Source: a virus
Direction: 5' to 3' (one strand)
Length of the DNA: 64,000 bases
IMG/VR virus record: IMGVR_UViG_3300013113_000534
Span: 3,440 to 67,439 of that record
Position 1 is the first letter of the stretch. Each line of letters begins with the position of its first letter. Below are positions 5,501-64,000 of this stretch, in pieces. The notes beneath the pieces are model-generated. The model was not told where the DNA came from, made no database searches, and saw nothing but the letters and a program-made list of their open reading frames with translations. Both the position numbers and the translations under genes were made by a program.

Positions 5501-6111
5501 AAATTCATTTCTTTTTTAAGTGCAGAAAAAACCTTAAAGCACATCTTATTATCATACAAGGCATCATGTAATTTATCTTCCTCAAACTCAATGCCAAAGA
5601 ATTTAAGTAGCTGGTTTTGAGACACTCTTGCCTTGAGGGATCGGTCATGGATTATTTTATACTGCCAACTCAACAAATCTTTCTTGGGCTTGTCCAAATC
5701 CTCTCTGTAAGCCTTGCCAAAAGCTCTAGTGTCATAAATTCTATTGAGATACGAATAATCAGGAGTTTCTCCCAATAACCTTTGCATCCCAGCTACCATG
5801 TAGACATCGAATCCTAGAAGGTTCTGGCCAACAATTTTATATTCTGGGTTAAATAAATCAGCCTTGAAGTCGGCCCAAACTTTCTTCAAAGGTTCTTTTC
5901 TTTCGTTATACTCATCCCAAGTAAAACCAGTAAGGCGCTCTACTATTTTATTTATTTGTAGATCCTTGTGACTAATATACCTATCATTCTCTTTAATTAC
6001 CCTGTTGCCTTGGCAGATCAACCATGAAACCTGCCAAGTGCGAGAAGAATGTAGATTAAGACCTTCAGTTTCCGTATCGAAAACTAAATATTTTTGATTA
6101 TGTGGTAGCAT
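5497..6111 (-). CDS. DEDDh 3'-5' exonuclease (DnaQ/epsilon-like)
   Basis: VFDTETEG, GQNLLGFD, YDT, LHDALYD. Confidence 0.9.
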   Translation of the reverse strand: MLPHNQKYLVFDTETEGLNLHSSRTWQVSWLICQGNRVIKENDRYISHKDLQINKIVERLTGFTWDEYNERKEPLKKVWADFKADLFNPEYKIVGQNLLGFDVYMVAGMQRLLGETPDYSYLNRIYDTRAFGKAYREDLDKPKKDLLSWQYKIIHDRSLKARVSQNQLLKFFGIEFEEDKLHDALYDNKMCFKVFSALKKEMNL

Positions 6112-30174: not shown

Positions 30175-32535
30175 TCTTAAGAAATTCTTTTGAGCGGCTC
30201 TGAAATTAGTTTGATTCCTAGTTGCCAAAAATGCATTTAAATTCTTGTCAATAATCAATTGCTCGTCTGGTCTAAGGAGTTTAACAGTAGATTCATCAAT
30301 CGTTGTGGTTACTCCAGATCCACCTAACTTAAGAGAAATTCCAGATATCGTTGGTTGAAATGTCGTGGGCAAACTGATCCCGACTATAGTTCTACTGGAT
30401 TGAGACGTAGGATTACGCAGGGATTGAATAGCGGATAACTGGCTATTTTCCAATGCTTTTATATCTGCAATTTTACCGCTCTTAATATCTAATCTAATTG
30501 GATTGTAAACCGATCCAGTAGATCCGTTATTCTTCACGTTATAATATCTAATATCATATCTCTCAGCTAATTCCGCTAACTTCTGTGCTGCTTCATCAAG
30601 CTGTGCCTGTTTTTCAGCTCTCTCCTCCTCATCTTCCCTTGATGCATCGTCAGCTACCTCATCAGTTGGCCTTTTCGATCTAGTGAAGTAAGCCCTTGCA
30701 GTGTTTGGCCCACTCACCTTTTTATCTTGATCAGCAAATATCTTTGGTGATGAGTCGATAATACTTTTTATCTTATTATTTAGATCTTCGGTATATCCTA
30801 AATGTTCATTAACTGCATTAACATATCGATATTCACCATTATTAAATAGACCAAAATTAAGATCTTCTAGCCCAAGTCCTCGACTAGCTCTATTTGATCC
30901 ATTAAGTATTCCAACAAAACCATAGTCTCCACCCCCAGTAGAGCCAGCGAATTCCATTATCTCCTCAAGTGTAACTTCGTCTTTGCCTTGATCAAGAGCA
31001 GCATGAAGATCAGCGAGAGCTTCTATCTGTGAGATTTTAGTTGTCTTAAGGAAAGGCCCACTTATGCTCATTTCAGAACCTGTCCAGTTTGTCCTCCTAG
31101 CTGAATACTGTCTATAAAAATTGGAAACATAAATTTTATTATGCAGCAATTCAAAAGCTAATTCTATTTTTGAAAAAGCTTCCCCTTGTGATGGTCTTTC
31201 TATTTTTACAATACTGCTTTTGTTTGCTAAAGATATAAATTTTGCTTTTCGGAGATCCATGATTCCATCTTTATTCAAGGAATCTATCATCCTGCTGCTT
31301 TTCAACAGTGTTGAAATATCTCCTGCTCTTGAAGACTTTACCGCAGCACTACCATTCCACTCCTCCTCCCTCCAAGTAATGCTTTCGGATAGTCTTGTTG
31401 CTACAATCCCCAAAACATCAAAATTGTCTTTGTTATAAGCTCCAGCGAGCCACATTGTATAATACAATTTAAGTAAATTTTCCGTAATTTTTAATTTGTT
31501 TATAACTTCTCCAACTGGGAGTTTTCTAAATCTAGTCAATCTCTCTCCTTGATCAAATTCAAAGGTTTGTTTTTGTTTCTCTATATTGCCAGAAAAAGCA
31601 TTAACAAATACAGGAGACATCTTATCTGTTGTAAAGGAAGCATCAACGTATGATTTTTGTATCTCTTGGGATTGTGTCAATGGATTTGTGATTGCTATGG
31701 TTGATGCCGCAATAGAATTTATAAACTTAACTACATTACTAAACGGATCAATAAACCAATAATACCCAAATTTTGAAGCTATATTAGAAACAATTCCGTC
31801 TAAAGTTCCAGACTCCTCAAATAACACATTTGGATTGGAGTTTGGAATATCAAGTATGATTCCGCACAGCCCAAATCCTTGTATTGCCTCTTTCAACGTG
31901 TACCCAAAACGTAAATCATAATTAGCGTAATCTGGGTTATTTGTGTAGTAAGAGCTAACGCCACCGCCGGGCGTTGGAGTCGTTAAATTATGACACAAAC
32001 CCTCTTGAAGAATCTGGTCTTGATAAACTAAAGATGTTTTAACGCCATCTGAGTCAACAGAACTTTCTTCATTATAAATATTCCCTATTCTTACAATACC
32101 ATTTTTATAAGATGGGCCTCTTCGCGGGAACCTTTGATTTACGTCTACAGGAGTATTTGTGCATTCACTAAAGTAAGGTACTGTAATTTCTCCTTGCCCA
32201 TCTCTAGGATGACCTTGACTACCTCTGACAAGAAAACAATTAGACTTTAACAAAAGTGCCGTTCTATTAGCGTATTCTCTGCTTACTTTTGTTGAAGTTC
32301 CATCTTTACTAATAGTCTCTTTAGTAACTACAAAGTTTTGCATCGCCTGTTGGATCTTCCCATTAGAAGACGTGATCCGTCCAGACTCAGAGCCTATAAT
32401 TGTCCCAAGATTATTCCCATCTTGCGCTAAGTCTTTAGCACCCCTAACGCTTTCAGTGGTCATTGAGTGATCTCCTCCAGAGCTTGAAAAATTAAAATTC
32501 AAGGATGTCAGTGTTTCTGGGGGGTTTAAGGCCAT
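30169..32535 (-). CDS. tail/baseplate hub-like virion protein
   Basis: 788 aa at the distal end of the tail operon; NIASKFGYYWFIDP and ISLKLG..GVTTT hub-like motifs. Confidence 0.55.
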   Translation of the reverse strand: MALNPPETLTSLNFNFSSSGGDHSMTTESVRGAKDLAQDGNNLGTIIGSESGRITSSNGKIQQAMQNFVVTKETISKDGTSTKVSREYANRTALLLKSNCFLVRGSQGHPRDGQGEITVPYFSECTNTPVDVNQRFPRRGPSYKNGIVRIGNIYNEESSVDSDGVKTSLVYQDQILQEGLCHNLTTPTPGGGVSSYYTNNPDYANYDLRFGYTLKEAIQGFGLCGIILDIPNSNPNVLFEESGTLDGIVSNIASKFGYYWFIDPFSNVVKFINSIAASTIAITNPLTQSQEIQKSYVDASFTTDKMSPVFVNAFSGNIEKQKQTFEFDQGERLTRFRKLPVGEVINKLKITENLLKLYYTMWLAGAYNKDNFDVLGIVATRLSESITWREEEWNGSAAVKSSRAGDISTLLKSSRMIDSLNKDGIMDLRKAKFISLANKSSIVKIERPSQGEAFSKIELAFELLHNKIYVSNFYRQYSARRTNWTGSEMSISGPFLKTTKISQIEALADLHAALDQGKDEVTLEEIMEFAGSTGGGDYGFVGILNGSNRASRGLGLEDLNFGLFNNGEYRYVNAVNEHLGYTEDLNNKIKSIIDSSPKIFADQDKKVSGPNTARAYFTRSKRPTDEVADDASREDEEERAEKQAQLDEAAQKLAELAERYDIRYYNVKNNGSTGSVYNPIRLDIKSGKIADIKALENSQLSAIQSLRNPTSQSSRTIVGISLPTTFQPTISGISLKLGGSGVTTTIDESTVKLLRPDEQLIIDKNLNAFLATRNQTNFRAAQKNFLRL

Positions 32536-32539
32536 TTAA

Positions 32540-33358
32540 TTAATAATTTTCTACTTGTTGGTTAATCAAGTAAACGGAAGAATCTATTCCTGTTTCTATC
32601 ATATACACTCCAGTATGAATTTGAAGAAAATCTTCGGTGGTTTGCTCCATTCCATTTATGTAAAAATCAACGTGATTTTCTATAAATTTAGGCCCATAAG
32701 AATCTGAAACTCCAGTAATTTCGTCAGTATTATTCTGCTTCTTTATAGCAAATAAAACCCCAGTAACACTATCTAACTCTGTATTTGAAGCGAAATCTTT
32801 AAGCTTTTGCCCATTAAAAAATAAAAAATAATTCTCTTCCAATTCTGCTTTGGAAGACGAGACAGCTCCAGCATCGATAGCAGCGTGAATGTTATCTAAT
32901 TCTGTATTCCAAGACCCAGCTGATGTGCTAGTTTTGCCTTGGGAAAAGTGAGAAAGTAAATCTCTTTTGTCATAATAAATGACATCTTGCTGATCTAAGT
33001 TTAAAACTGGGTCAAACATAATTTCGCCCTCACCATTATTGAAATCAATAATGTAATCTCCTAAGTCTGTAGCTGATTGTATATAATAATTTTTGTTACG
33101 GGTGCTTGTGGTTGTAATGCCAGTAGCTTCAAGCATAGTTTGAGAATTAAGTGAAATCAAAGAGGTTTTCTCCCCAGTGATGACATTAATATCAACACTA
33201 AAGGGATACTCTTTATCTTTCCCATCTGCATCTAATCTAAAATGCGTTTTATCAAGCACATTTGCACCAAAATAAGCATCTTGATTTTTACCTGATATGT
33301 TCAACTGACTACCCGTTATAGTAGTATTACCAGTAGCTATTACATAGTTATATGTCAT
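32540..33358 (-). CDS. virion tail protein
   Basis: FFNGQKL and FYINGMEQ repeats, TG-rich; gene order. Confidence 0.55.
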   Translation of the reverse strand: MTYNYVIATGNTTITGSQLNISGKNQDAYFGANVLDKTHFRLDADGKDKEYPFSVDINVITGEKTSLISLNSQTMLEATGITTTSTRNKNYYIQSATDLGDYIIDFNNGEGEIMFDPVLNLDQQDVIYYDKRDLLSHFSQGKTSTSAGSWNTELDNIHAAIDAGAVSSSKAELEENYFLFFNGQKLKDFASNTELDSVTGVLFAIKKQNNTDEITGVSDSYGPKFIENHVDFYINGMEQTTEDFLQIHTGVYMIETGIDSSVYLINQQVENY

Positions 33359-50691: not shown

Positions 50692-52215
50692 TTATTTTGT
50701 AACTTCTACAGAGAAGTTCTCCTTAAGTTTTTCAACCAAAGAAATTTGTTCAGAAGCTTCTGCGTTGTTGTTTGGAACAGGAGCGGCCTCGACCTCTTCA
50801 ACTTCCAACTCATCTTCGCTAGCTTTAACTTCTTCTTGCTGCTCAGGAGCCTCTTCTGCCATCTTAGAAGCAATAGCCTCTTCGATTTTAGCTTTGACTG
50901 CCTCTTCTTGAGCTGCAATAGACTCTTTGGTCTTGCTTGCAAAAAGAATAGAAAGTTTTTCTTTGAAGGTATCAAAAGCCTCGGGAGAAGCTTCAACAGC
51001 CTTCAACTCATCTACGACCAACTTAAGCTCTGCTTCAGTAAGTTCGTATGTGGAATCGATAAAGTTCATACGAGAGTTAAATAACTCAACAGCAGCTTGA
51101 GCTTCAATCTCAGATTTGAGAGAGGAGAGTTCTGCCTGAACAGCATCAAAAGAAGCTTTCATTTCAGTCAGGTCTGCTTCTGCTTTCTCACGAGCTTCGG
51201 CTTCAAGTTGAACTTTAGATTTCCAGTTTTCGGAATGCTCAGTAAGAGCATCACGCATAATCTCACCAACAGAGCTGGCTTGATCGTCCTTCTTGACTAC
51301 GGAAGCTACGCTTTCCGCAACTTGTGTCATTAATGTTTCGAATTGTTCCTTATCCATATCAAAAATATCGAATTTGTTGTTTGTTACAGTGTTTTTCCCG
51401 TTTAGGGAATTTTTAATAATATTATTATCTTCTTTCGCTAAAGAATTATCAACAGGCTTTTCGTTTTTCTGCGGTTCTGATGTATAAACTCCTTTAACTC
51501 TAGCAGCAGGTTTATATGTTAGTGCAGCTCCTAAAGGATAAGTTTCACCATGTATCAATCGGTGAACTGGTGTCCCATTTTTATCCATGCCTTTACCACC
51601 AAAACCTTTTACATACTGCTTAAGTTCTTGCTTCTTTGAACCTTCGGCAACTTCGCACTCGTCCAATCTATTAGATCCATAGACGACTTTATAGTTCTTA
51701 AATGCAAGCTCCCAGCTAGTAGCAATGCTCTGATATTCTTCATTCTCTTCTTTCGCGGCTGTTTCAATAGCTTCCGCTAACTCTGGAAAAATATTTTTAT
51801 AAATTAAACCAGCAGCGTTAATATAAAATGGTTCTTTTTTATCAGCATATGATTCAATCGCGTTATCCTTAAAATCATATTCGTCCATAGAGAAAGAAGC
51901 ATTGATCATGTGGCCTACGATCTTATGCTTCTTGTGTTCAATGTTGATTGGCTTATTGATAAATCTTTTTACGGCAGCTACTGCTGTTTTAGAATCTATG
52001 CCATCACCGTTTTTGTTGAATTCGTTGACGAGAGCCAAGTTAAATACTACAGGCAATACATCTACATTTGCGGATGGGTCAAAGTCGTCAGGCAGTAAAG
52101 ATTTAGCTGCCTCCGCGATAGATCCTTCTGATACTCCAAACTTTTCGTAATCAGCTTCTTTGAGAGCCTTGATATTACAATCAAAGCTACTTACCTCAAA
52201 ATCTTTTAAATCCAT
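50692..52215 (-). CDS. prohead protease fused to scaffold
   Basis: NKNGD, KPINIEH, SWE, ALT..PA; acidic coiled-coil C-terminus. Confidence 0.8.
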   Translation of the reverse strand: MDLKDFEVSSFDCNIKALKEADYEKFGVSEGSIAEAAKSLLPDDFDPSANVDVLPVVFNLALVNEFNKNGDGIDSKTAVAAVKRFINKPINIEHKKHKIVGHMINASFSMDEYDFKDNAIESYADKKEPFYINAAGLIYKNIFPELAEAIETAAKEENEEYQSIATSWELAFKNYKVVYGSNRLDECEVAEGSKKQELKQYVKGFGGKGMDKNGTPVHRLIHGETYPLGAALTYKPAARVKGVYTSEPQKNEKPVDNSLAKEDNNIIKNSLNGKNTVTNNKFDIFDMDKEQFETLMTQVAESVASVVKKDDQASSVGEIMRDALTEHSENWKSKVQLEAEAREKAEADLTEMKASFDAVQAELSSLKSEIEAQAAVELFNSRMNFIDSTYELTEAELKLVVDELKAVEASPEAFDTFKEKLSILFASKTKESIAAQEEAVKAKIEEAIASKMAEEAPEQQEEVKASEDELEVEEVEAAPVPNNNAEASEQISLVEKLKENFSVEVTK

Positions 52216-57043: not shown

Positions 57044-58098
57044 AACAACTCTTTTTTAGATATACCAAGCACTCGTGCTTTATAGTCATCCATATTCTCT
57101 AGTCTATCAGCTTCTTCTTCAATTAATTTATTTTGAAGTTCAGCCATCATGATCATACGGTCTCTTTCTTCACGCTCTTGGAACGCTTCGACCAGAGCAA
57201 AGATAGATCCGTTTTCTTCACCTTTAGCTTTCAGTCTTGCAGTTCTAGATCCATTCAAGTCTTTCGTTAGGGATTCGATCCGCTTCTCGCACTGGTTAAG
57301 CTCTTCACTGGTGGCCTTGATAATCTCCGTCAGACGCATTGTGATGTCCCTTTCGTTGTCTTGGTCGTCTAGTAGTGCATTAAGCTTGTCAATACGCATC
57401 TGGATGTGTTTCTGGCGCACATAGTTAGCACATACGGTCACATATAGATTCAATTCGTCGTTAGTGAGGTCAGGCTTGTCCCAAACAGCACGGACGAACT
57501 CACTTTCGAATAAGTTTCTGTCTGCTAGAGTTGCATACTGATTGATAAAATGATTGAAGCGAGGGCTTTTAAAATAAATAATTAATTGCTCGACTAGCTT
57601 CTTTTGTTTTGTTTGGAGGGTTAGCTCCTCTAGTGCGGCCCCACAGAAGTTGTTTATCTTAACAATCGCTCTGTTTATGGACTTGGGAGGAGTCCACTTC
57701 TCTTTTGTAACAATTTCGTTATCGTCTACAATCTCTGGCCTATAAGTTTTGAGGAAATCGACAATAACCCTGTGTTTCATACTCAAGGGCTGAACGTCAC
57801 GGTCTTTGAAAGTAAGTCGGGCGATCTCTAATGCATTCATCCCAACCTCAATATTGTCAGTCATCAAGAACTCTTTCTGCTCTTTGTTTAAATGAATCTG
57901 TTCTACTTTCGGGGCAAGTGATGTATTTGCTTTTTTATCCTGTTCTGCTAAGAACTTCCTCACCGCACGACCCTGTTTAGACCTCCCATCAATATCGTCA
58001 TCATTAAATACCTTGCGGGTAATAAACATTAAATCGGGGTTCTGTTTAAACAACTTAAGAATCTCCTCTTTCTGCTTCTCTGTTAAATCATATATCAT
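57040..58098 (-). CDS. hypothetical protein with HTH-like N-terminus and coiled coil (terminase small subunit candidate)
   Basis: 352 aa, two genes upstream of TerL; function inferred from position only. Confidence 0.4.
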   Translation of the reverse strand: MIYDLTEKQKEEILKLFKQNPDLMFITRKVFNDDDIDGRSKQGRAVRKFLAEQDKKANTSLAPKVEQIHLNKEQKEFLMTDNIEVGMNALEIARLTFKDRDVQPLSMKHRVIVDFLKTYRPEIVDDNEIVTKEKWTPPKSINRAIVKINNFCGAALEELTLQTKQKKLVEQLIIYFKSPRFNHFINQYATLADRNLFESEFVRAVWDKPDLTNDELNLYVTVCANYVRQKHIQMRIDKLNALLDDQDNERDITMRLTEIIKATSEELNQCEKRIESLTKDLNGSRTARLKAKGEENGSIFALVEAFQEREERDRMIMMAELQNKLIEEEADRLENMDDYKARVLGISKKELL

Positions 58099-58775
58099 TA
58101 TAAATCCTCCTCTTTTATTAACTTTGCGGCTATATTGTAAAACTTCTTCTTCAGGTTGTTTATTTGTTTGTATCTAGGTGTCTTTCTTTTACTTGTATCT
58201 CGCTTAAACCCAAACTTTTTAGCAACCTCTATTTCATCCATGTGATCTATAAACAAAAGCTTGTATATCTCTTTATGCTTGTCGTTTAACTCAGCCATAA
58301 CCAAAAGATGTATCTTGGCCGTTTTGTTTTCATAATCTAACTCATCTTCATTTATCCTATCTTTAATAGATATTAAAGAATCCAAAGAGACTGGCATCTT
58401 TAAATGAAACGCGCTTTGTTTCTTATTCTTCCATTTAGCGAAGTCCCCACACTCTTCATCCTGCTCCTTACTCTTAGTGAAACCGCACTCATCTCCACCC
58501 AAATAAAAAGAACACCGCAAACACGGTTTAGCGAAGTTTCCATAATGATTCCTTATCAGATTCTTTATCTGATTACTAATCAACATAGAAGCCCAAGGCT
58601 TAAATGCTCTCTTCTGATCCCACAAATGCCACTTTTTATAGATATGAGTACGGATTATTTGAGACACATCGTCATAATCCAACCAAGCTATTGAGTTAAG
58701 CTGCCACTTGGCTCTATACCTACTTAAAAGTTCTTCTATCTCTGGAATAAGGTCTTCATACCTTTTATCCATCAA
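58098..58775 (-). CDS. second sigma-factor-like protein with Cys insert
   Basis: DYDDVSQ..WD..FKPWASMLISNQIKN; CLRC..C..C; C-terminal EVAKKFG HTH. Confidence 0.7.
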   Translation of the reverse strand: MMDKRYEDLIPEIEELLSRYRAKWQLNSIAWLDYDDVSQIIRTHIYKKWHLWDQKRAFKPWASMLISNQIKNLIRNHYGNFAKPCLRCSFYLGGDECGFTKSKEQDEECGDFAKWKNKKQSAFHLKMPVSLDSLISIKDRINEDELDYENKTAKIHLLVMAELNDKHKEIYKLLFIDHMDEIEVAKKFGFKRDTSKRKTPRYKQINNLKKKFYNIAAKLIKEEDL

Positions 58776-59841: not shown

Positions 59842-60011
59842 GGGTTTAGCTTTTGTTTTGTTTTATTATGTGGCGCACCGCCACTTTTAATATAAAAATA
59901 ACTTCTTTATGGTGTTCACCACCCCCCGCGCTTTGTCTGCCGAATGCAAAACCCAAAACCTTTGAGAAAACCCCTCCCCTAAAAAAAAATGCATTATATA
60001 CAAAAAAAAGC

Positions 60012-60040
60012 TTTTAATTGTCAGGCATCTGTGCTATACT
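60012..60040 (+). promoter_or_regulatory. early promoter for a leaderless mRNA
   Basis: A-tract, TTTTAA-N17-TATACT, then ATGCCC-ATG. Confidence 0.65.
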
Positions 60041-60046
60041 ATGCCC

Positions 60047-60247
60047 ATGAAAGAAATCAAAACTTCCTTAGTCTCCGATCTAACATTCATTGAAATAGCT
60101 GATACTCTTCGCCCTGATCAGTGGGCTGATTGGTATGTCGAATTCTCTTACAAAGGAAAAGAGTATGAAGGCTCTTTACAGGCTGGAGTTCACAACGAAG
60201 AAGATTTTCACCACGATGTCATCGACAACATCGAAGAAAAAAAATAA
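60047..60247 (+). CDS. early hypothetical protein
   Basis: 66 aa acidic; ATG 6 nt after TATACT. Confidence 0.7.
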   Translation: MKEIKTSLVSDLTFIEIADTLRPDQWADWYVEFSYKGKEYEGSLQAGVHNEEDFHHDVIDNIEEKK

Positions 60248-60301
60248 AAATAATAGCAAAAAAAGCTTTTAATTCATTCTAATACCTGATAAAATACACG
60301 C

Positions 60302-60577
60302 ATGGCAACGATATACACCAACGGAGTAAAAACCAAACACGCAGACGAAATCAAGAGTTTCGTCATCATCTCGAAAACCGATCAAGGCGAAGAGTTTGTT
60401 TGGGGCGAGACCACCAACACAAAAACAGTTGAGAAATTGAACAGTGGTCAGCACTGGGCTTTCCCCGAAGGGAAGTTCGTTCGCGTCGAGGAGTTTGAGA
60501 ACAGAAAGGCTTCTTGGGCTTCCAAGTATGGAGAAAGACTGGAAGTTCTTTATGGTCGCAACTCCCGCCCCCGTTAA
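60302..60577 (+). CDS. early hypothetical protein
   Basis: 91 aa; TAAAAT-N6-ATG. Confidence 0.7.
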   Translation: MATIYTNGVKTKHADEIKSFVIISKTDQGEEFVWGETTNTKTVEKLNSGQHWAFPEGKFVRVEEFENRKASWASKYGERLEVLYGRNSRPR

Positions 60578-60641
60578 AAAAAGTTTTCTTTTTATACGAA
60601 AAGAGCTTGCACCAATCAGAAAAATAAAGTAGAATTCACAC

Positions 60642-60833
60642 ATGACAGCAACCGAAGAAGCACTAGCAGCAATGAAGAAAGCAGAACAAGCGTGGGACGA
60701 GATGGTCAATAGAACCGTTGAAGTCTCAGGCCAGTTCGTAAAAGAATGCCAAGAGTTCCAGAAAGAACAAAAGGAATGGTTCCTTAAAAATGTGCCTGAT
60801 CAGCCGAAGCAAGACCCTAGGTTTCTCGCCTAA
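60642..60833 (+). CDS. early hypothetical protein
   Basis: 63 aa; TTGCAC-N17-TAGAAT-N6-ATG. Confidence 0.7.
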   Translation: MTATEEALAAMKKAEQAWDEMVNRTVEVSGQFVKECQEFQKEQKEWFLKNVPDQPKQDPRFLA

Positions 60834-60860
60834 AAAACAACAAGTAAGAACACTAACACC

Positions 60861-61085
60861 ATGAATCTCCACAATTTTAAATATCAATCCCCAATGGGGA
60901 AAGCTATCTTGATTCTCACCTATCCCATTCTCTTCCCTCATCACATTGGGGAGTGGATGCGTGCGCGTGAGTTGAAGCGAATCATTCGCAAAGGTCTTCC
61001 CGAGGCGTGCAAGAATCCGCAGGGCGTGACTGCGGAAATCGTAGACGAAGCGAGTTGGGAGCTACGCTCGATTTACGGCAAGTAA
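60861..61085 (+). CDS. early hypothetical protein
   Basis: 74 aa, short hydrophobic stretch. Confidence 0.6.
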   Translation: MNLHNFKYQSPMGKAILILTYPILFPHHIGEWMRARELKRIIRKGLPEACKNPQGVTAEIVDEASWELRSIYGK

Positions 61086-61092
61086 AAAGTTT

Positions 61093-61158
61093 GGGTGGCC
61101 TATGGTTTCGACGAGACGCGAGTCTCGGACGGGGGTTCGATCCCCCCGCCATCCACCA
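61093..61158 (+). ncRNA. mini-tmRNA: tRNA-like domain only, no mRNA-like domain
   Basis: acceptor GGGTGGC/GCCATCC with G3:U70, A73, CCA; stemless D-loop ..GGTTTCGA; 6-bp helix closed by a GCGA tetraloop; GAC; T-arm GGGGG-TTCGATC-CCCCC. Confidence 0.85.
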
Positions 61159-61168
61159 AAAAAAATAC

Positions 61169-61321
61169 TTGACACGTTGAGTTTTTATGTTATAAAAAAA
61201 ATCGCTGTAACTCACTGAGTATCAACGAGTTACGGCGAAGCGCCCCGCCCCGCCCCGTAACTGACTGAGTATCAACGACTTACGAAGGTTTTTTCTATAT
61301 CAGAACGAGCCATCGTGTCAA
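61169..61321. repeat. symmetric element copy 1: convergent TTGACA promoters around two 27-bp palindromes
   Basis: palindromes 61207-61233 and 61257-61283; 23-bp GC spacer. Confidence 0.85.
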
Positions 61322-61400
61322 CACTTTTAATGAGAAAAAAAGTTTCTTTTTTATGCAGAAAAAGCTTTTCTTTTGTGAGATTCTCCTCTATACTATGCCC

Positions 61401-61643
61401 ATGTCCGACACCACATCACCTAACTTCCGCACTTACAGAACTAAGCACCTCATTCTCTCAGTCTACCGCACGGGGATGACTTACTTGCACATCTCTATAA
61501 AGAATAGTCAGTGGAGCAGATATAAATTCCAAGCTATCACCCGCGAGCAAGCAGCGAAAGCCCTCCTCGATATCCGCGCAGTCAAACGCGCAGCTAAGAG
61601 AGCAGAGGCCCAAGCCCTTGTTTCTGTCGCTTCTTACCTCTAA
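61401..61643 (+). CDS. early basic hypothetical protein
   Basis: 80 aa; TATACT-ATGCCC-ATG. Confidence 0.7.
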   Translation: MSDTTSPNFRTYRTKHLILSVYRTGMTYLHISIKNSQWSRYKFQAITREQAAKALLDIRAVKRAAKRAEAQALVSVASYL

Positions 61644-61699
61644 AAAAAATCAAAATAATCCTTGCATCAACCCCAAATCTAGAGTAAAATTACCTCGTT

Positions 61700-62032
61700 A
61701 TGAAAAACACCACTACCACCACCACCCGCTTCGATCACTCCCTCTATGGACTCAGCGACGAAGATCTCAAGAAAAAGCTCACCAATCGCGTGGTGACTTA
61801 CTTCAACAGCGACGAGTCCACTGTTAAGAGTGACGGCGTTCGTCAGTTCGTGATCAAGTCCATCGACTACACTGGTCACGCTAAAGGCTCGGGTCGTCGC
61901 TTTATCCAAGGCGAAGTCCAAGACCTCGACGATGGAGGCAAGTCCAAGTTCCGCACCCTGCACGTTGGCGGGATCGAAAAGGTGAAGGGTCGCGTGGCCA
62001 CCGCTTACCAGCTAGCCAAGTCAGTTTTCTAA
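61700..62032 (+). CDS. stand-alone WYL-like/SH3-fold protein
   Basis: TYFNS..GVRQFVI..FIQG..D..FRTLHVGGI; TTGCAT-N17-TAAAAT promoter; biased codons. Confidence 0.55.
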   Translation: MKNTTTTTTRFDHSLYGLSDEDLKKKLTNRVVTYFNSDESTVKSDGVRQFVIKSIDYTGHAKGSGRRFIQGEVQDLDDGGKSKFRTLHVGGIEKVKGRVATAYQLAKSVF

Positions 62033-62047
62033 TGGTGTTGTGTGTCA

Positions 62048-62084
62048 GCCCGTCAGTCTCTTCGGAGGCTGGCGGGTTTTTTTT
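62048..62084 (+). terminator. intrinsic terminator
   Basis: GCCCGTCAGTCTC-TTCG-GAGGCTGGCGGGT followed by a T-run. Confidence 0.85.
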
Positions 62085-62140
62085 GTGTTTTTATGCAAAA
62101 AGATCTTGTGTTTAATTCTTTTCTGGAGTATAATCTCGGC

Positions 62141-62374
62141 ATGGCAACAGTAACACAAGACCAGCTAGCAGAATTCGCATATAAGGCAGCACTCAACAAT
62201 CAGGAGAGCGAAGACTGCCCGACTTCCTACCTTGGGTATATCATACCTGATGAGTTCCCGAATGGAGAGGAATCATATGAGATCTGGGCGATGGCTTACA
62301 AGGAAGGGCTAGAGGACGCTGGGACATACATGGCGCAAGGCGCGGAGGATCGAGCGCGAGACTGGCAAGACTAA
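62141..62374 (+). CDS. early acidic hypothetical protein
   Basis: 77 aa; TTGTGT-N17-TATAAT-N6-ATG. Confidence 0.7.
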   Translation: MATVTQDQLAEFAYKAALNNQESEDCPTSYLGYIIPDEFPNGEESYEIWAMAYKEGLEDAGTYMAQGAEDRARDWQD

Positions 62375-62387
62375 CCACCCCGCGCAA

Positions 62388-62413
62388 GGCTCCCGAAAGG
62401 GAGCTTTTTTTTT
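62388..62413 (+). terminator. intrinsic terminator
   Basis: GGCTCCC-GAAA-GGGAGCT followed by a T-run. Confidence 0.85.
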
Positions 62414-62434
62414 GAATTAAATTAATCTTTTGGG

Positions 62435-62586
62435 TTGACAGCCGCGAGAAAACAACTAATAAGAAAACCCTCGTAACTCACTGAGTATCAAGGAGTTACG
62501 GGCGGGGCGGGGTCGCTCGCTCGTAACTCGTTGAGTATCAAGGACTTACAACGTTTTTTCTTTATAGTAAACGAGAGGAGAGTCAA
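62435..62586. repeat. symmetric element copy 2
   Basis: palindromes 62473-62499 and 62523-62549; TTGACA on +, TTGACT on -. Confidence 0.85.
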
Positions 62587-62665
62587 GCGTTTTTCTAAGA
62601 AAAAAAAATAAGAAAAGATGCAGAAAAAGCTTTTCTTTTTTAAGGTTTTCCTTTATACTATGCCC

Positions 62666-62914
62666 ATGTCCGACCAGAACCAAACCACACTTCCCTTCTC
62701 TGCTGCTAAACTCTTGATCAAAATCTGTCGCCCTGCTGCCAGAGTCGAAGGAACGGAAGATGAACTTTATCCCGATGAATGGGCATTGCATTGCCAGCCT
62801 AGCAACTCCAGAGATCTTCTGACTAAATTGGGCTTGATCACTTGCTTTGCTTGGGTAAACAAAAATCAATATCTTCCCACCGAAAAGGCTTTGAACCTTT
62901 ACTTCAAAGGATAA
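62666..62914 (+). CDS. early hypothetical protein (winged-helix-like end)
   Basis: 82 aa; TATACT-ATGCCC-ATG; LTKLGLI..YLPTEKA. Confidence 0.65.
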   Translation: MSDQNQTTLPFSAAKLLIKICRPAARVEGTEDELYPDEWALHCQPSNSRDLLTKLGLITCFAWVNKNQYLPTEKALNLYFKG

Positions 62915-62955
62915 AAAAATAAATTTAAAAAGGGCTTGCGCCCATCTAATTAGGT

Positions 62956-63165
62956 ATGACCACCGTTAAACAGCTAATCGAACACTTGCAAACCTTACCA
63001 CAAGAAGCGGAAGTTTACGCTCGAAACGAATGTGGCGAGAGTCGCGAATTAGATTTGGATAATTACAATGTTTACGTTTCAGACTTTCGTGAAGGTAAAA
63101 ACCAATTGGTAAAGGAAGGTCACCATCTTTTCGGTAGGGTAATTGTAGACATCGAAACCGAGTAA
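62956..63165 (+). CDS. early hypothetical protein
   Basis: 69 aa, TVKQLIEHLQTLPQEAEV N-terminal motif common in small phage proteins. Confidence 0.75.
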   Translation: MTTVKQLIEHLQTLPQEAEVYARNECGESRELDLDNYNVYVSDFREGKNQLVKEGHHLFGRVIVDIETE

Positions 63166-63185
63166 AAGGAACTCTAAATAAAAAC

Positions 63186-63338
63186 TTGACAAGCCCCGTT
63201 CTTACGCTAAGAAAAAAATCGCTGTAACTCACTGAGTATCAAGGAGTTACGGGCGGGGCGGGGTCGCTCGCTCGTAACTCGTTGAGTATCAAGGACTTAC
63301 GAAGAATTTTTCTTTATCATAATTCTGAAGCATGGCAA
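63186..63338. repeat. symmetric element copy 3
   Basis: palindromes 63224-63250 and 63274-63300; 77-bp core identical to copy 2; TTGACA on +, TTGCCA on -. Confidence 0.85.
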
Positions 63339-63407
63339 GCCCAAAAACAAAAATAAATCAACCTGTCTGACAGCTTAAAAAAAGATTAAAAAAAGATTAA
63401 AAAGGTG

Positions 63408-63436
63408 TTGTGCTGAACGCAAAAATCGTTTATACT
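63408..63436 (+). promoter_or_regulatory. sigma70-type promoter for the tRNA-like RNA
   Basis: A-tract repeats AAAAAAAGATT twice, then TTGTGC-N17-TATACT. Confidence 0.7.
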
Positions 63437-63451
63437 TCCCCCAGCAACAAA

Positions 63452-63567
63452 AGCTCTATAGTTTAAAAAGTAAAACATTCTCCACGACCTCTCGGTATGC
63501 CGAAGTCACTGTAACCCTAATGGTTCAGGCGAGAAAGACAAAGGTGCAATTCCTTTTAGAGCGACCA
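63452..63567 (+). ncRNA. tRNA-like RNA with a 48-nt two-hairpin insert in place of the anticodon loop
   Basis: acceptor (A)GCTCTA/TAGAGC(G)-A-CCA, D stem GTTT/AAAC, anticodon stem TTCTC/GAGAA, T-arm AAAGG-TGCAATT-CCTTT. Confidence 0.75.
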
Positions 63568-63605
63568 ATTTTCCAAACACAAGAACAAGAACTAAATAAT
63601 TAGAT

Positions 63606-63677
63606 ATGAAAGCTAAAGCAACTACTACCATCACGCACGTATTCGATTTTAAGACCCTTACTTGGTTGAAGCGATAA
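63606..63677 (+). CDS. 23-aa peptide
   Basis: MKAKATTTITHVFDFKTLTWLKR after TAATTAGATATG. Confidence 0.4.
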   Translation: MKAKATTTITHVFDFKTLTWLKR

Positions 63678-63716
63678 AGGAGCACTAATATAATTAGGTA
63701 TGAAAGAGAGAGCCGA

Positions 63717-63854
63717 GTGCTTTCTCAGACATCATAAGCCCCAAGGAGCTTGCCGCATGAGTGAAGTTGGGTTAGTCACCAATGTGATCATGTTAACTAC
63801 GGATGACTTCCGTTGGGTGGGTAGAAGGATTCCCACTGGTGTCTGAGAGAGCAT
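63717..63854 (+). ncRNA. candidate multibranch structured RNA
   Basis: 18-bp closing stem GTGCTTTCTCAGACATCA/TGGTGTCTGAGAGAGCAT with G-U pairs, enclosing four hairpins. Confidence 0.55.
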
Positions 63855-63877
63855 TAGGAACTCTAATATAATTAGGT

Positions 63878-64000
63878 ATGAAAGATGATTTTTACATTAC
63901 ACACGATGAAAGAGAGCTTATAATTGAGTGTATTGAAAAAGAAATAAAGGAGACAGAGCCGACAGAAAACGATAATCCGATGTTTGTCGTTCATGCAGAA
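63878..64000 (+). CDS. hypothetical protein (runs off window end)
   Basis: MKDDFYITHDERELIIECIEKEIKETEPTENDNPMFVVHAE.. after TATAATTAGGTATG. Confidence 0.6.
   Translation, partial: MKDDFYITHDERELIIECIEKEIKETEPTENDNPMFVVHAE

Follow-up and report, generated by a model that had tools for sequence, protein, structure and literature searches.

A covarying two-hairpin domain in place of the anticodon loop of a tRNA-shaped phage RNA

What is a tRNA gene for when two hairpins take the place of its anticodon loop? The question is posed by a 116-nt element at positions 63452-63567 of a 64,000-nt stretch of viral DNA, here called the window, which spans bases 3440-67439 of the 67,439-base IMG/VR virus record IMGVR_UViG_3300013113_000534. 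The record is estimated to be about half complete, and the virus is a tailed phage, uncultured and marine. An original prediction described the element as a tRNA body whose anticodon loop is replaced by a 48-nt two-hairpin domain, and offered two readings, a non-decoding tRNA mimic or a tRNA with an unusual intron. We lean towards the former: a phage gene for a non-decoding tRNA-shaped RNA, whose tRNA body would serve processing and stability and would display a small three-way junction. In its favor are an insert that is present and covarying in all 30 sequence variants collected, the lack of any insert-free allele, and a match in design to RNAs of phage T5.

A tRNA body with an altered anticodon arm

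Against the Rfam tRNA model (RF00005) the RNA scores 41.9 bits (gathering cut-off 29; E = 1.6e-5 over the 64-kb window), with an alignment that puts 47 nt at the place of six loop positions and flags pair 1:72 as non-standard. With this score, and with a recurrence nearly unchanged in many contigs, the predicted cloverleaf with its insert is more than a chance resemblance. The acceptor strands AGCTCTA and TAGAGCG pair from G2-C71 to A7-U66, leaving A1 unpaired opposite G72. The D arm, GTTT-AAAAAGTA-AAAC, has a 4-bp stem and a loop (AAAAAGUA as RNA) with a single G and no GG, so that the G18-G19 elbow signature is missing. The T arm, AAAGG-TGCAATT-CCTTT, has the loop UGCAAUU with G at position 55 and lacks the T-Psi-C (UUC) signature. 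One G19:C56 pair and U54:A58 are still possible as remnants of the elbow, and further landmarks of a tRNA body can be read: U8, A14, A21, the D-loop G able to pair with C56, and U54/A58. The variable region is 4 nt long, with no Leu-type variable arm; A73 and an encoded CCA (63565-63567) form the 3' end. Everything that had been claimed of this body (the cloverleaf arms, the encoded CCA, A1:G72, the D loop without GG, the TGCAATT T loop) is thus readable in the window sequence.

The anticodon arm is where the RNA departs from a tRNA (coordinates and pairings in Table 1). A canonical loop would hold seven nucleotides with U33, an anticodon and a purine at position 37; here 48 nt (63483-63530) lie between the stem strands, and both the minimum free energy and the centroid structure fold them into two hairpins, in agreement with the fold first proposed. 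The RNA has no usable anticodon loop. ARAGORN in default mode calls no tRNA at 63452-63567.

A scan of 63445-63575 with Rfam 15 (cmscan, E <= 10) returned tRNA and otherwise chance-level matches to mir-971, Plastid-ycf2, HTH-XRE and tmRNA_permuted; ribozyme, riboswitch, CRISPR repeat, Y RNA-like and intron families gave no match in that scan, and the RNA has no Rfam family of its own. Several other identities were tried and set aside: (i) Cores of hammerhead, twister, pistol and hatchet ribozymes were found neither by eye nor by Rfam. (ii) A likeness to CRISPR repeats, considered for hairpin 2 together with GAGAAA, was dropped, there being no Rfam CRISPR-DR match. (iii) A tmRNA-like tag reading frame within the insert was rejected on UAA triplets that are not conserved among the variants. 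(iv) Alignment of the tRNA body to 26 phage tRNAs, run with poor settings, gave many ties at 45-46/75 and no usable ancestry.

Covariation and the pattern of variation

Across the 30 distinct variants, 99.9% of the cells of the 29 proposed pairs are paired. Three pairs are doubly changed with pairing kept and no intermediates: pair 12:23 of the D stem (U-A in 22 variants, C-G in 8), the middle pair of the hairpin-1 base (A-U in 23, G-C in 7, never mismatched) and the second pair of hairpin 2 (C-G in 18, U-A in 12, never mismatched). The observed number of doubly changed cells was reached by none of 500 column shuffles, and a control in which partners were slid by 1-3 columns contained no doubly changed pair. 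The proposal that homologues might show covariation in the insert is borne out, since both of its hairpins hold doubly changed pairs. The pairs of the anticodon stem are invariant in all 30 variants. The pair states of the D stem and hairpin 1 occur in all four combinations, so these states were recombined or arose more than once.

The variable part is the apex of hairpin 1, which appears as an 8-nt loop segment in several versions, as a 10-nt mini-hairpin with three tetraloops, or as a 33-nt extension. The tRNA body, the junction nucleotides and hairpin 2 hardly vary; within hairpin 2, the bulged base and the second loop base do. Position 72 is G in 19 variants, A in 7, C in 4 and U in none, and position 73 is A in 20 and G in 10. 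CCA is encoded in 29 of the 30; one variant type has CAA.

Distribution and spread

The 30 variants come from 53 distinct sequence contexts in viral and metagenome contigs. Among viral contigs, stretches found by an exact T-arm seed held the RNA in 7/7 cases, those found by a seed of hairpin 2 plus stem in 17/29 and those found by a D-arm seed in 12/21, the remainder of the latter two sets being unrelated coding sequence. A 23-nt degenerate seed found 51 stretches in metagenomes, every one a full-length match to our own covariance model of the family, R1, at 127 bits or more. The same seed had no match in 185,579 bacterial and archaeal species (one genome each); in cultured phages we found one 34-nt chance match in a coding gene and, for the 1.2-kb region, no match. 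A literature search yielded no paper describing this RNA family.

When R1 was run over the window and 80 loci with related terminases (81-99% identical, 1.1 Mb), there were five strong matches and nothing intermediate. With only five carriers in this set, the tRNA-shaped RNA is an accessory cassette and not a core gene. ARAGORN found one ordinary tRNA in total on 60 of the 80 terminase-related loci. Two phages with terminase genes 96% identical to that of the window carry RNAs just 87-89% identical to the window RNA, and the RNA of a phage with a 77% identical terminase gene is 85% identical; the variants are mosaic and RNA identity does not track terminase identity, which indicates that variants have been exchanged between phages. 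One contig carries two diverged copies of the RNA 835 nt apart. In about 1.4 Mb searched with blastn-short the insert was found solely within the tRNA-shaped RNA, and the idea that it is a dispersed mobile element was dropped on that account.

In an alignment of 47 contexts, each with flanks of 80 nt, conservation stays close to 1.0 from the -10 box to the last of seven trailer bases (ATTTYCC) behind the RNA and decays past about +13; the conserved unit is the RNA, and conservation drops outside -21 to +13. These results bear on the least favorable reading of the locus, as a decaying tRNA pseudogene or a tRNA-derived DNA element (a recombination or attachment site) with no RNA function. Such a reading could draw on the D loop without GG, G55 in the T loop, the 1:72 mismatch, the variant type with CAA for CCA, and the position of the RNA in a recombination-prone cassette zone. 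We consider it very improbable. The double changes keep Watson-Crick pairing in three helices while nearly every pair cell stays paired, the RNA is far better kept than its flanks, a conserved -10 stands at each copy, the insert occurs nowhere but inside the tRNA-shaped RNA, and absence from the bacterial and archaeal species genomes means that this is not a copy of a host attachment site. A decaying pseudogene with an unconserved insert was named in the original prediction, together with a lack of expression, as its refutation; the homologues show an insert that is conserved and covarying.

Is the RNA a spliced tRNA?

The second reading first offered for the locus, a tRNA with an unusual intron and the anticodon CAG, takes the RNA as a precursor containing a new kind of short intron, to be removed by an unknown enzyme or by cleavage and ligation. 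Loss of 41 nt in the window (39 or 64 in other variants) would give a 75-nt tRNA with the loop (C/U)UCAGGC, the anticodon CAG or CGG, and G37. The last seven nucleotides of the insert, TTCAGGC, do make a canonical 7-nt loop with U33 and G36-G37 once 41 nt are taken out, as had been pointed out from the sequence, and this loop-like heptamer (UUCAGGC, with U33 and G37) adjoins the 3' stem strand, just as splicing would have it. ARAGORN, which had been suggested as a check, reports nothing at its default threshold; in intron mode with a relaxed threshold it gives tRNA-Leu(cag) i(32,41) for the window and tRNA-Pro(cgg) for L005 and L002. The covarying pair of hairpin 2 could reflect base pairing between the anticodon and part of an intron; excerpts of a paper on Lak megaphages (PMC6784885) put conserved 'enigmatic' introns of tRNAs in print; and a second tRNA-like gene of related phages (described below) has a UAU/UCU-type loop remnant beside its insert, AUA being a common codon in the window phage.

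Even so, splicing seems decidedly unlikely. One and the same body would carry CAG in 12 of the 30 variants and CGG in 18, hence two amino-acid identities, and positions 72 and 73 vary independently of this choice. The middle base of the supposed anticodon belongs to the covarying pair of hairpin 2, which argues against a spliced Leu tRNA. Among 18,100 phage codons, no Leu codon is rarer than the CUG (4.8 per 1000) and no Pro codon rarer than the CCG (2.1 per 1000) that would have to be read, and the RNA has no Leu-type variable arm. The insert, 39-64 nt long, matches no intron or ribozyme family at E <= 10 and has no recognizable self-splicing core, in keeping with the earlier remarks that it is too short for a group I intron and that a Leu-type arm is missing. 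The would-be 3' splice point falls within the hairpin-2 stem, with no bulge-helix-bulge at the splice points. No insert-free allele occurs among the matches to seeds consisting of the D arm or the T arm only, and the T5 counterpart is annotated as a full-length stable RNA.

RNA libraries add a weak point: in three of four runs contigs cover the RNA, all with the insert and none with a joint. The assembled contigs also contain promoter DNA and may be DNA carry-over; the run search gave small word shares (0.06-0.08), and contigs cannot show ends, strand or level. A 404-nt RNA-library contig (run X5, record 5) matches the RNA from the anticodon stem onward only (window 63475-63571) and, in place of the expected acceptor 5' strand and D arm, begins with 59 letters of unrelated sequence; it may be a chimeric assembly or a recombinant.

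Promoter, trailer and the following gene

A promoter-like site precedes the RNA (Table 1). Its -10 and the TTG of its first hexamer are kept across the 47 aligned contexts, and a role as promoter is presumed. A simple sigma-70 consensus scan leaves it below threshold, since its first hexamer matches at 3/6 positions only. This site is the 'dedicated promoter' initially claimed. The presumed 5' leader lies within the 15 nt between the -10 and the RNA, from where RNase P would remove it, as the tRNA-like acceptor and T arms suggest.

The seven trailer bases directly past CCA are likely the site of the first 3' processing cut, or may be part of the mobile cassette. An excerpt of PMC2190699 reports that RNase E of E. 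coli cuts tRNA transcripts 1-3 nt past the encoded CCA, and the conserved A/U-rich trailer fits such a cut. No terminator was found 3' of the RNA in the window by the scan that was used for promoters, and a small open reading frame (ORF) starts 38 nt downstream. Over the 53 contexts, the RNA stands behind promoters of at least three types and ahead of small ORFs from at least ten unrelated families.

This arrangement raises the possibility of a cis-acting leader module. Under this reading the 5' untranslated region has a tRNA-like fold that signals processing ('tRNA punctuation') or stabilizes the transcript; it would govern the 5' end, stability or translation of the next early ORF, the excised RNA having no job. 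In most of the 53 contexts an ORF begins 14-70 nt past CCA, often too near to have its own promoter, and a cis role stays in play for that reason. The trailer ATTTYCC is conserved along with the RNA; other early genes appear leaderless, so ORFs behind the RNA are exceptional and would need a defined 5' end; and the RNase E cut just cited counts in favor of this reading as well. All the same, we rate a purely cis-acting role as unlikely. In at least six of the 53 contexts (L131, L171, L167, L030, L010, L003) a promoter-like site lies between the RNA and the next ORF or is the ORF's own, and the RNA stands alone. A processing signal would have no need of a three-way junction that is conserved and covaries and in which one hairpin diversifies; the ORF families behind the RNA are unrelated; and hairpin-1 types are not matched to ORF types, no link between the two having been found when one was sought. 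A pairing of the hairpin-2 loop with the AATTAGGT motif before early ATGs was likewise rejected, because the loop varies (CUAAU, CCAAU, CAAAU) and the motif does not.

At least five different contexts have a conserved micro-ORF behind the RNA, 20-23 codons long and with the ending ...F(V)FDFKTLTW(I/V/L)...

A proposed non-decoding RNA and what it might do

If the RNA is non-decoding, as we favor, the following course may be envisioned. The gene would be transcribed early from its own sigma-70-type promoter, often jointly with the following small ORF. Acceptor stem, T arm and elbow would make the transcript a substrate of host tRNA maturation and lend it tRNA-like stability; RNase P would act at the 5' end, an endonuclease would cut in the A/U-rich trailer, and trimming to the encoded CCA would leave a stable 116-nt RNA. 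Its working surface would be the 48-nt three-way junction on the anticodon stem, with hairpin 2 and the junction conserved and hairpin 1 highly variable. This domain may act in trans, its target being a factor of host or phage; as a decoy or a competitor it might, for instance, engage a tRNA-binding protein. A decoy directed at host proteins that handle or cut tRNAs could be expected to look this way, with hairpin 2 fixed, hairpin 1 diversifying next to it, and a mini-tmRNA consisting of the tRNA-like domain only (below) in the same early region. Phage tRNAs counter tRNA-targeting defences, according to excerpts of PMC10264068 and PMC11555353. Identity-specific aminoacylation is probably absent, since positions 72 and 73 vary and 1:72 is never paired.

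A bolder version of this course is possible, though we find it doubtful. The tRNA body may be a natural chassis for small effector RNAs, with hairpin 2, the junction and the fast-changing hairpin 1 forming a decoy that blocks a host tRNA-directed factor, such as a tRNA-cutting immune nuclease or a tRNA end-modifying toxin; variants would be shuffled as in an arms race, and a mini-tmRNA and the second insert-bearing tRNA-like gene (both below) would be sister devices in an 'RNA-only' toolkit for takeover or anti-defence.

Several points weigh against a non-decoding RNA of this kind. Its fold energy is unexceptional (z = -1.42; 19 of 200 shuffles fold equally well), and a safe lower bound on independent compensatory events is just three. 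The family is narrow and was gathered with exact-match seeds: in two of four collection scans the search pattern prescribed 17-23 nt of hairpin 2 plus stem, and in the other two it prescribed the T arm or the D arm, so that invariance is partly a matter of ascertainment. RF00005 scores 39.5-42.1 bits on 16 of 20 related loci but misses the other four at E <= 0.1 (L156, L182, L187, L188), all of them R1-positive. To these must be added, from above, the loop-like heptamer next to the 3' stem strand, the relaxed ARAGORN call of a Leu tRNA, RNA-library contigs that may be DNA, and the short distance to the next ORF.

Comparison with known RNAs

The closest likeness is to two RNAs of phage T5, rna1 (30501-30644, 144 nt) and rna2 (32959-33083, 125 nt), annotated in AY543070 as 'tRNA-like stable RNA with unknown functions'. 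They too are phage-encoded, lie in the early region among tRNA-type genes, and by their folds keep the acceptor, D and T arms while a structured insert of about 40-60 nt replaces the anticodon loop. T5 rna1 scores 24 bits with Rfam tRNA, and ARAGORN at its default threshold calls it tRNA-Leu(taa) with a 40-nt insert at position 33; the window RNA has its 41-nt insert at position 32, and both retain a loop remnant on the 3' side. There are clear differences: T5 rna1 has a Leu-type long variable arm and the window RNA one of 4 nt; neither T5 RNA encodes CCA, unlike 29/30 of the variants here; and the three-way junction with two hairpins is not that of the T5 inserts. R1 with filters off gave rna2 8.6 bits (E 1.9) and rna1 7.9 bits over an 18-nt piece only, and it gave ordinary T5 tRNAs up to 29.9 bits. 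The likeness is thus one of design and not of demonstrable descent. A literature search found no paper explaining the T5 RNAs, whose unspliced accumulation rests on the annotation of the record.

Phage T4 rnaC and rnaD (species 1 and 2; AF158101 70908-71171) are also small stable RNAs beside phage tRNA genes, and the last part of rnaC is a canonical T arm with an acceptor-like stem. Neither has a full cloverleaf: the best Rfam match of rnaC is tRNA-Sec (17.5 bits, E 0.76), and the fold of rnaD has no tRNA features. For Lak megaphages, excerpts of Devoto et al. 2019 (PMC6784885) describe tRNA genes split by short, highly conserved sequences whose removal mechanism is unexplained; there, alleles with and without the insert and an assignable anticodon are described, whereas the family studied here has no insert-free allele and its 'anticodon' covaries within a stem.

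The tRNA-like domain of tmRNA shares the tRNA derivation, the acceptor stem, T arm and CCA, and the lack of an anticodon. It differs in having G3:U70 and no D stem and in working with SmpB, where the window RNA has C3:G70 and a full 4-bp D arm; on the permuted tmRNA model the window RNA scores 9.7 bits (E 2.6), which does not place it among tmRNAs. In the 'tRNA scaffold' of Ponchon and Dardel, a structured foreign RNA grafted on a tRNA anticodon stem is said to be processed and stable in bacteria; the scaffold is man-made, and its likeness to the design proposed here is one of principle only.

Non-decoding tRNA-shaped RNAs have been annotated in the model phages T5 and T4 for decades without a function. 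The present family indicates that the same design is also common in abundant uncultured marine phages, and in a compact form: 116 nt, an encoded CCA, a structure backed by covariation, and one diversifying hairpin with the rest fixed. Small and tractable, it is a case in which the binding partners of such RNAs can be sought. There is a caution for annotation too, as intron-tolerant tRNA finders would call tRNA-Leu(CAG) or tRNA-Pro(CGG) plus an intron, for which the comparative data give no support.

The early region and its other elements

Coordinates of all mapped features are collected in Table 1. Small ORFs and RNA genes fill the plus strand of the window from about 60000 to 64000, a region of early type. 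No ordinary tRNA gene was found in the window by ARAGORN in default mode; a related phage that carries the tRNA-shaped RNA (G001, the record of L004) has four, Thr-UGU, Asn-GUU, Leu-UAA and Met-CAU.

Table 1. Positions of the tRNA-shaped RNA, its parts and other elements (window coordinates unless a contig or record is named)
Feature	Location	Strand	Description
tRNA-shaped RNA, 116 nt	63452-63567	+	RF00005 41.9 bits; own covariance model R1 139.6 bits
Anticodon arm	63478-63535	+	5-bp stem TTCTC/GAGAA (63478-63482 with 63531-63535) closing three-way junction; minimum free energy and centroid folds, RNAalifold
Hairpin 1	63486-63507	+	3-bp base GAC/GTC; internal loop CTCT/AA; apical hairpin CGG-TATG-CCG (63493-63502)
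Hairpin 2	63509-63528	+	CTG-(T)-AACC, loop CTAAT, GGTT-CAG; 3' strand holds supposed anticodon CAG (63526-63528)
Promoter-like site	63408-63436	+	TTGTGC (63408-63413), 17-nt spacer, TATACT (63431-63436)
Stretch between -10 and RNA, 15 nt	63437-63451	+	TCCCCCAGCAACAAA; partly conserved across contexts; presumed 5' leader lies within
3' trailer ATTTTCC	63568-63574	+	Directly past CCA; column conservation 1.00, 1.00, 1.00, 1.00, 0.70, 0.98, 0.98 (47 contexts)
Micro-ORF	63606-63677	+	Also behind the RNA in L177, L150, L009/L161, L147/L162
Mini-tmRNA, 66 nt	61093-61158	+	53.8 bits against cut-off 47
77-bp element, three copies	61207-61283, 62473-62549, 63224-63300		
Second tRNA-like gene	L158:88-215; L165:84-216; L003:926-1056	-	
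Early ATGs behind TATAAT-like box (examples)	60047, 60302, 60642, 62141, 62666	+	
ORF starts behind GTGTAA(T/C) (examples)	44629, 48894, 54191, 59822, 22741, 36356	-	
Sigma70_r2 protein	58098-58775		Sigma-70 region 2
Ordinary tRNA genes of G001	5792-5944 and 51691-52039		

The mini-tmRNA comprises the acceptor stem, T arm and CCA of tmRNA, with 4 nt in place of the 312-position middle of the model. Relatives lie at L008:2997-3062 (minus strand, 47.7 bits) and L139:259-323 (minus strand, 43.9 bits), and the element recurs about 0.3-2.3 kb from the tRNA-shaped RNA.

The second tRNA-like gene is unrelated to the tRNA-shaped RNA and was found in three related contigs, about 0.5-1 kb downstream of that RNA. 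Its T loop is canonical and its D loop holds GG; it lacks CCA and scores 28.8 bits with Rfam tRNA, just below the cut-off. A 9-bp anticodon-type stem surrounds about 55 nt with two hairpins, next to loop remnants readable as UAU or UCU. Compensatory changes among its three copies fall in the long stem, in the T stem and in each of the two hairpins of the insert. Its T arm had no exact match in viral contigs.

In the 77-bp elements a G/C-rich spacer of 23 bp separates a 27-bp palindrome (GTAACTC-N13-GAGTTAC type) from a second palindrome. All three copies stand behind a TTGACA-type promoter, between early cassettes, the third about 150 nt 5' of the tRNA-shaped RNA. Single occurrences of the 27-nt palindrome motif lie between genes in six Fibrobacter metagenome-assembled genomes (MAGs) and one Akkermansia MAG; in four that were searched it had no Rfam match. 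We judged this insufficient to name a host, and the nearest cultured relatives by terminase are less than 28% identical to the window protein.

Other products of the window are a large terminase, a 1550-aa tape-measure protein, ribonucleotide reductase, PhoH, a Pol III-alpha-like polymerase, DnaB, primase, Hsp20, many glycosyltransferases and a Sigma70_r2 protein. In many cases between 60020 and 62700 (plus strand) the ATG of an early ORF lies about 6-7 nt past a TATAAT-like box, e.g. TATACTATGCCCATG, a distance so short that the early mRNAs look leaderless. Shine-Dalgarno-like motifs lie upstream of 11 of the 61 window ORFs only. On the minus strand a GTGTAA(T/C) motif recurs about 8-22 nt 5' of several structural or late ORF starts; it may be a late promoter for the phage sigma-like protein.

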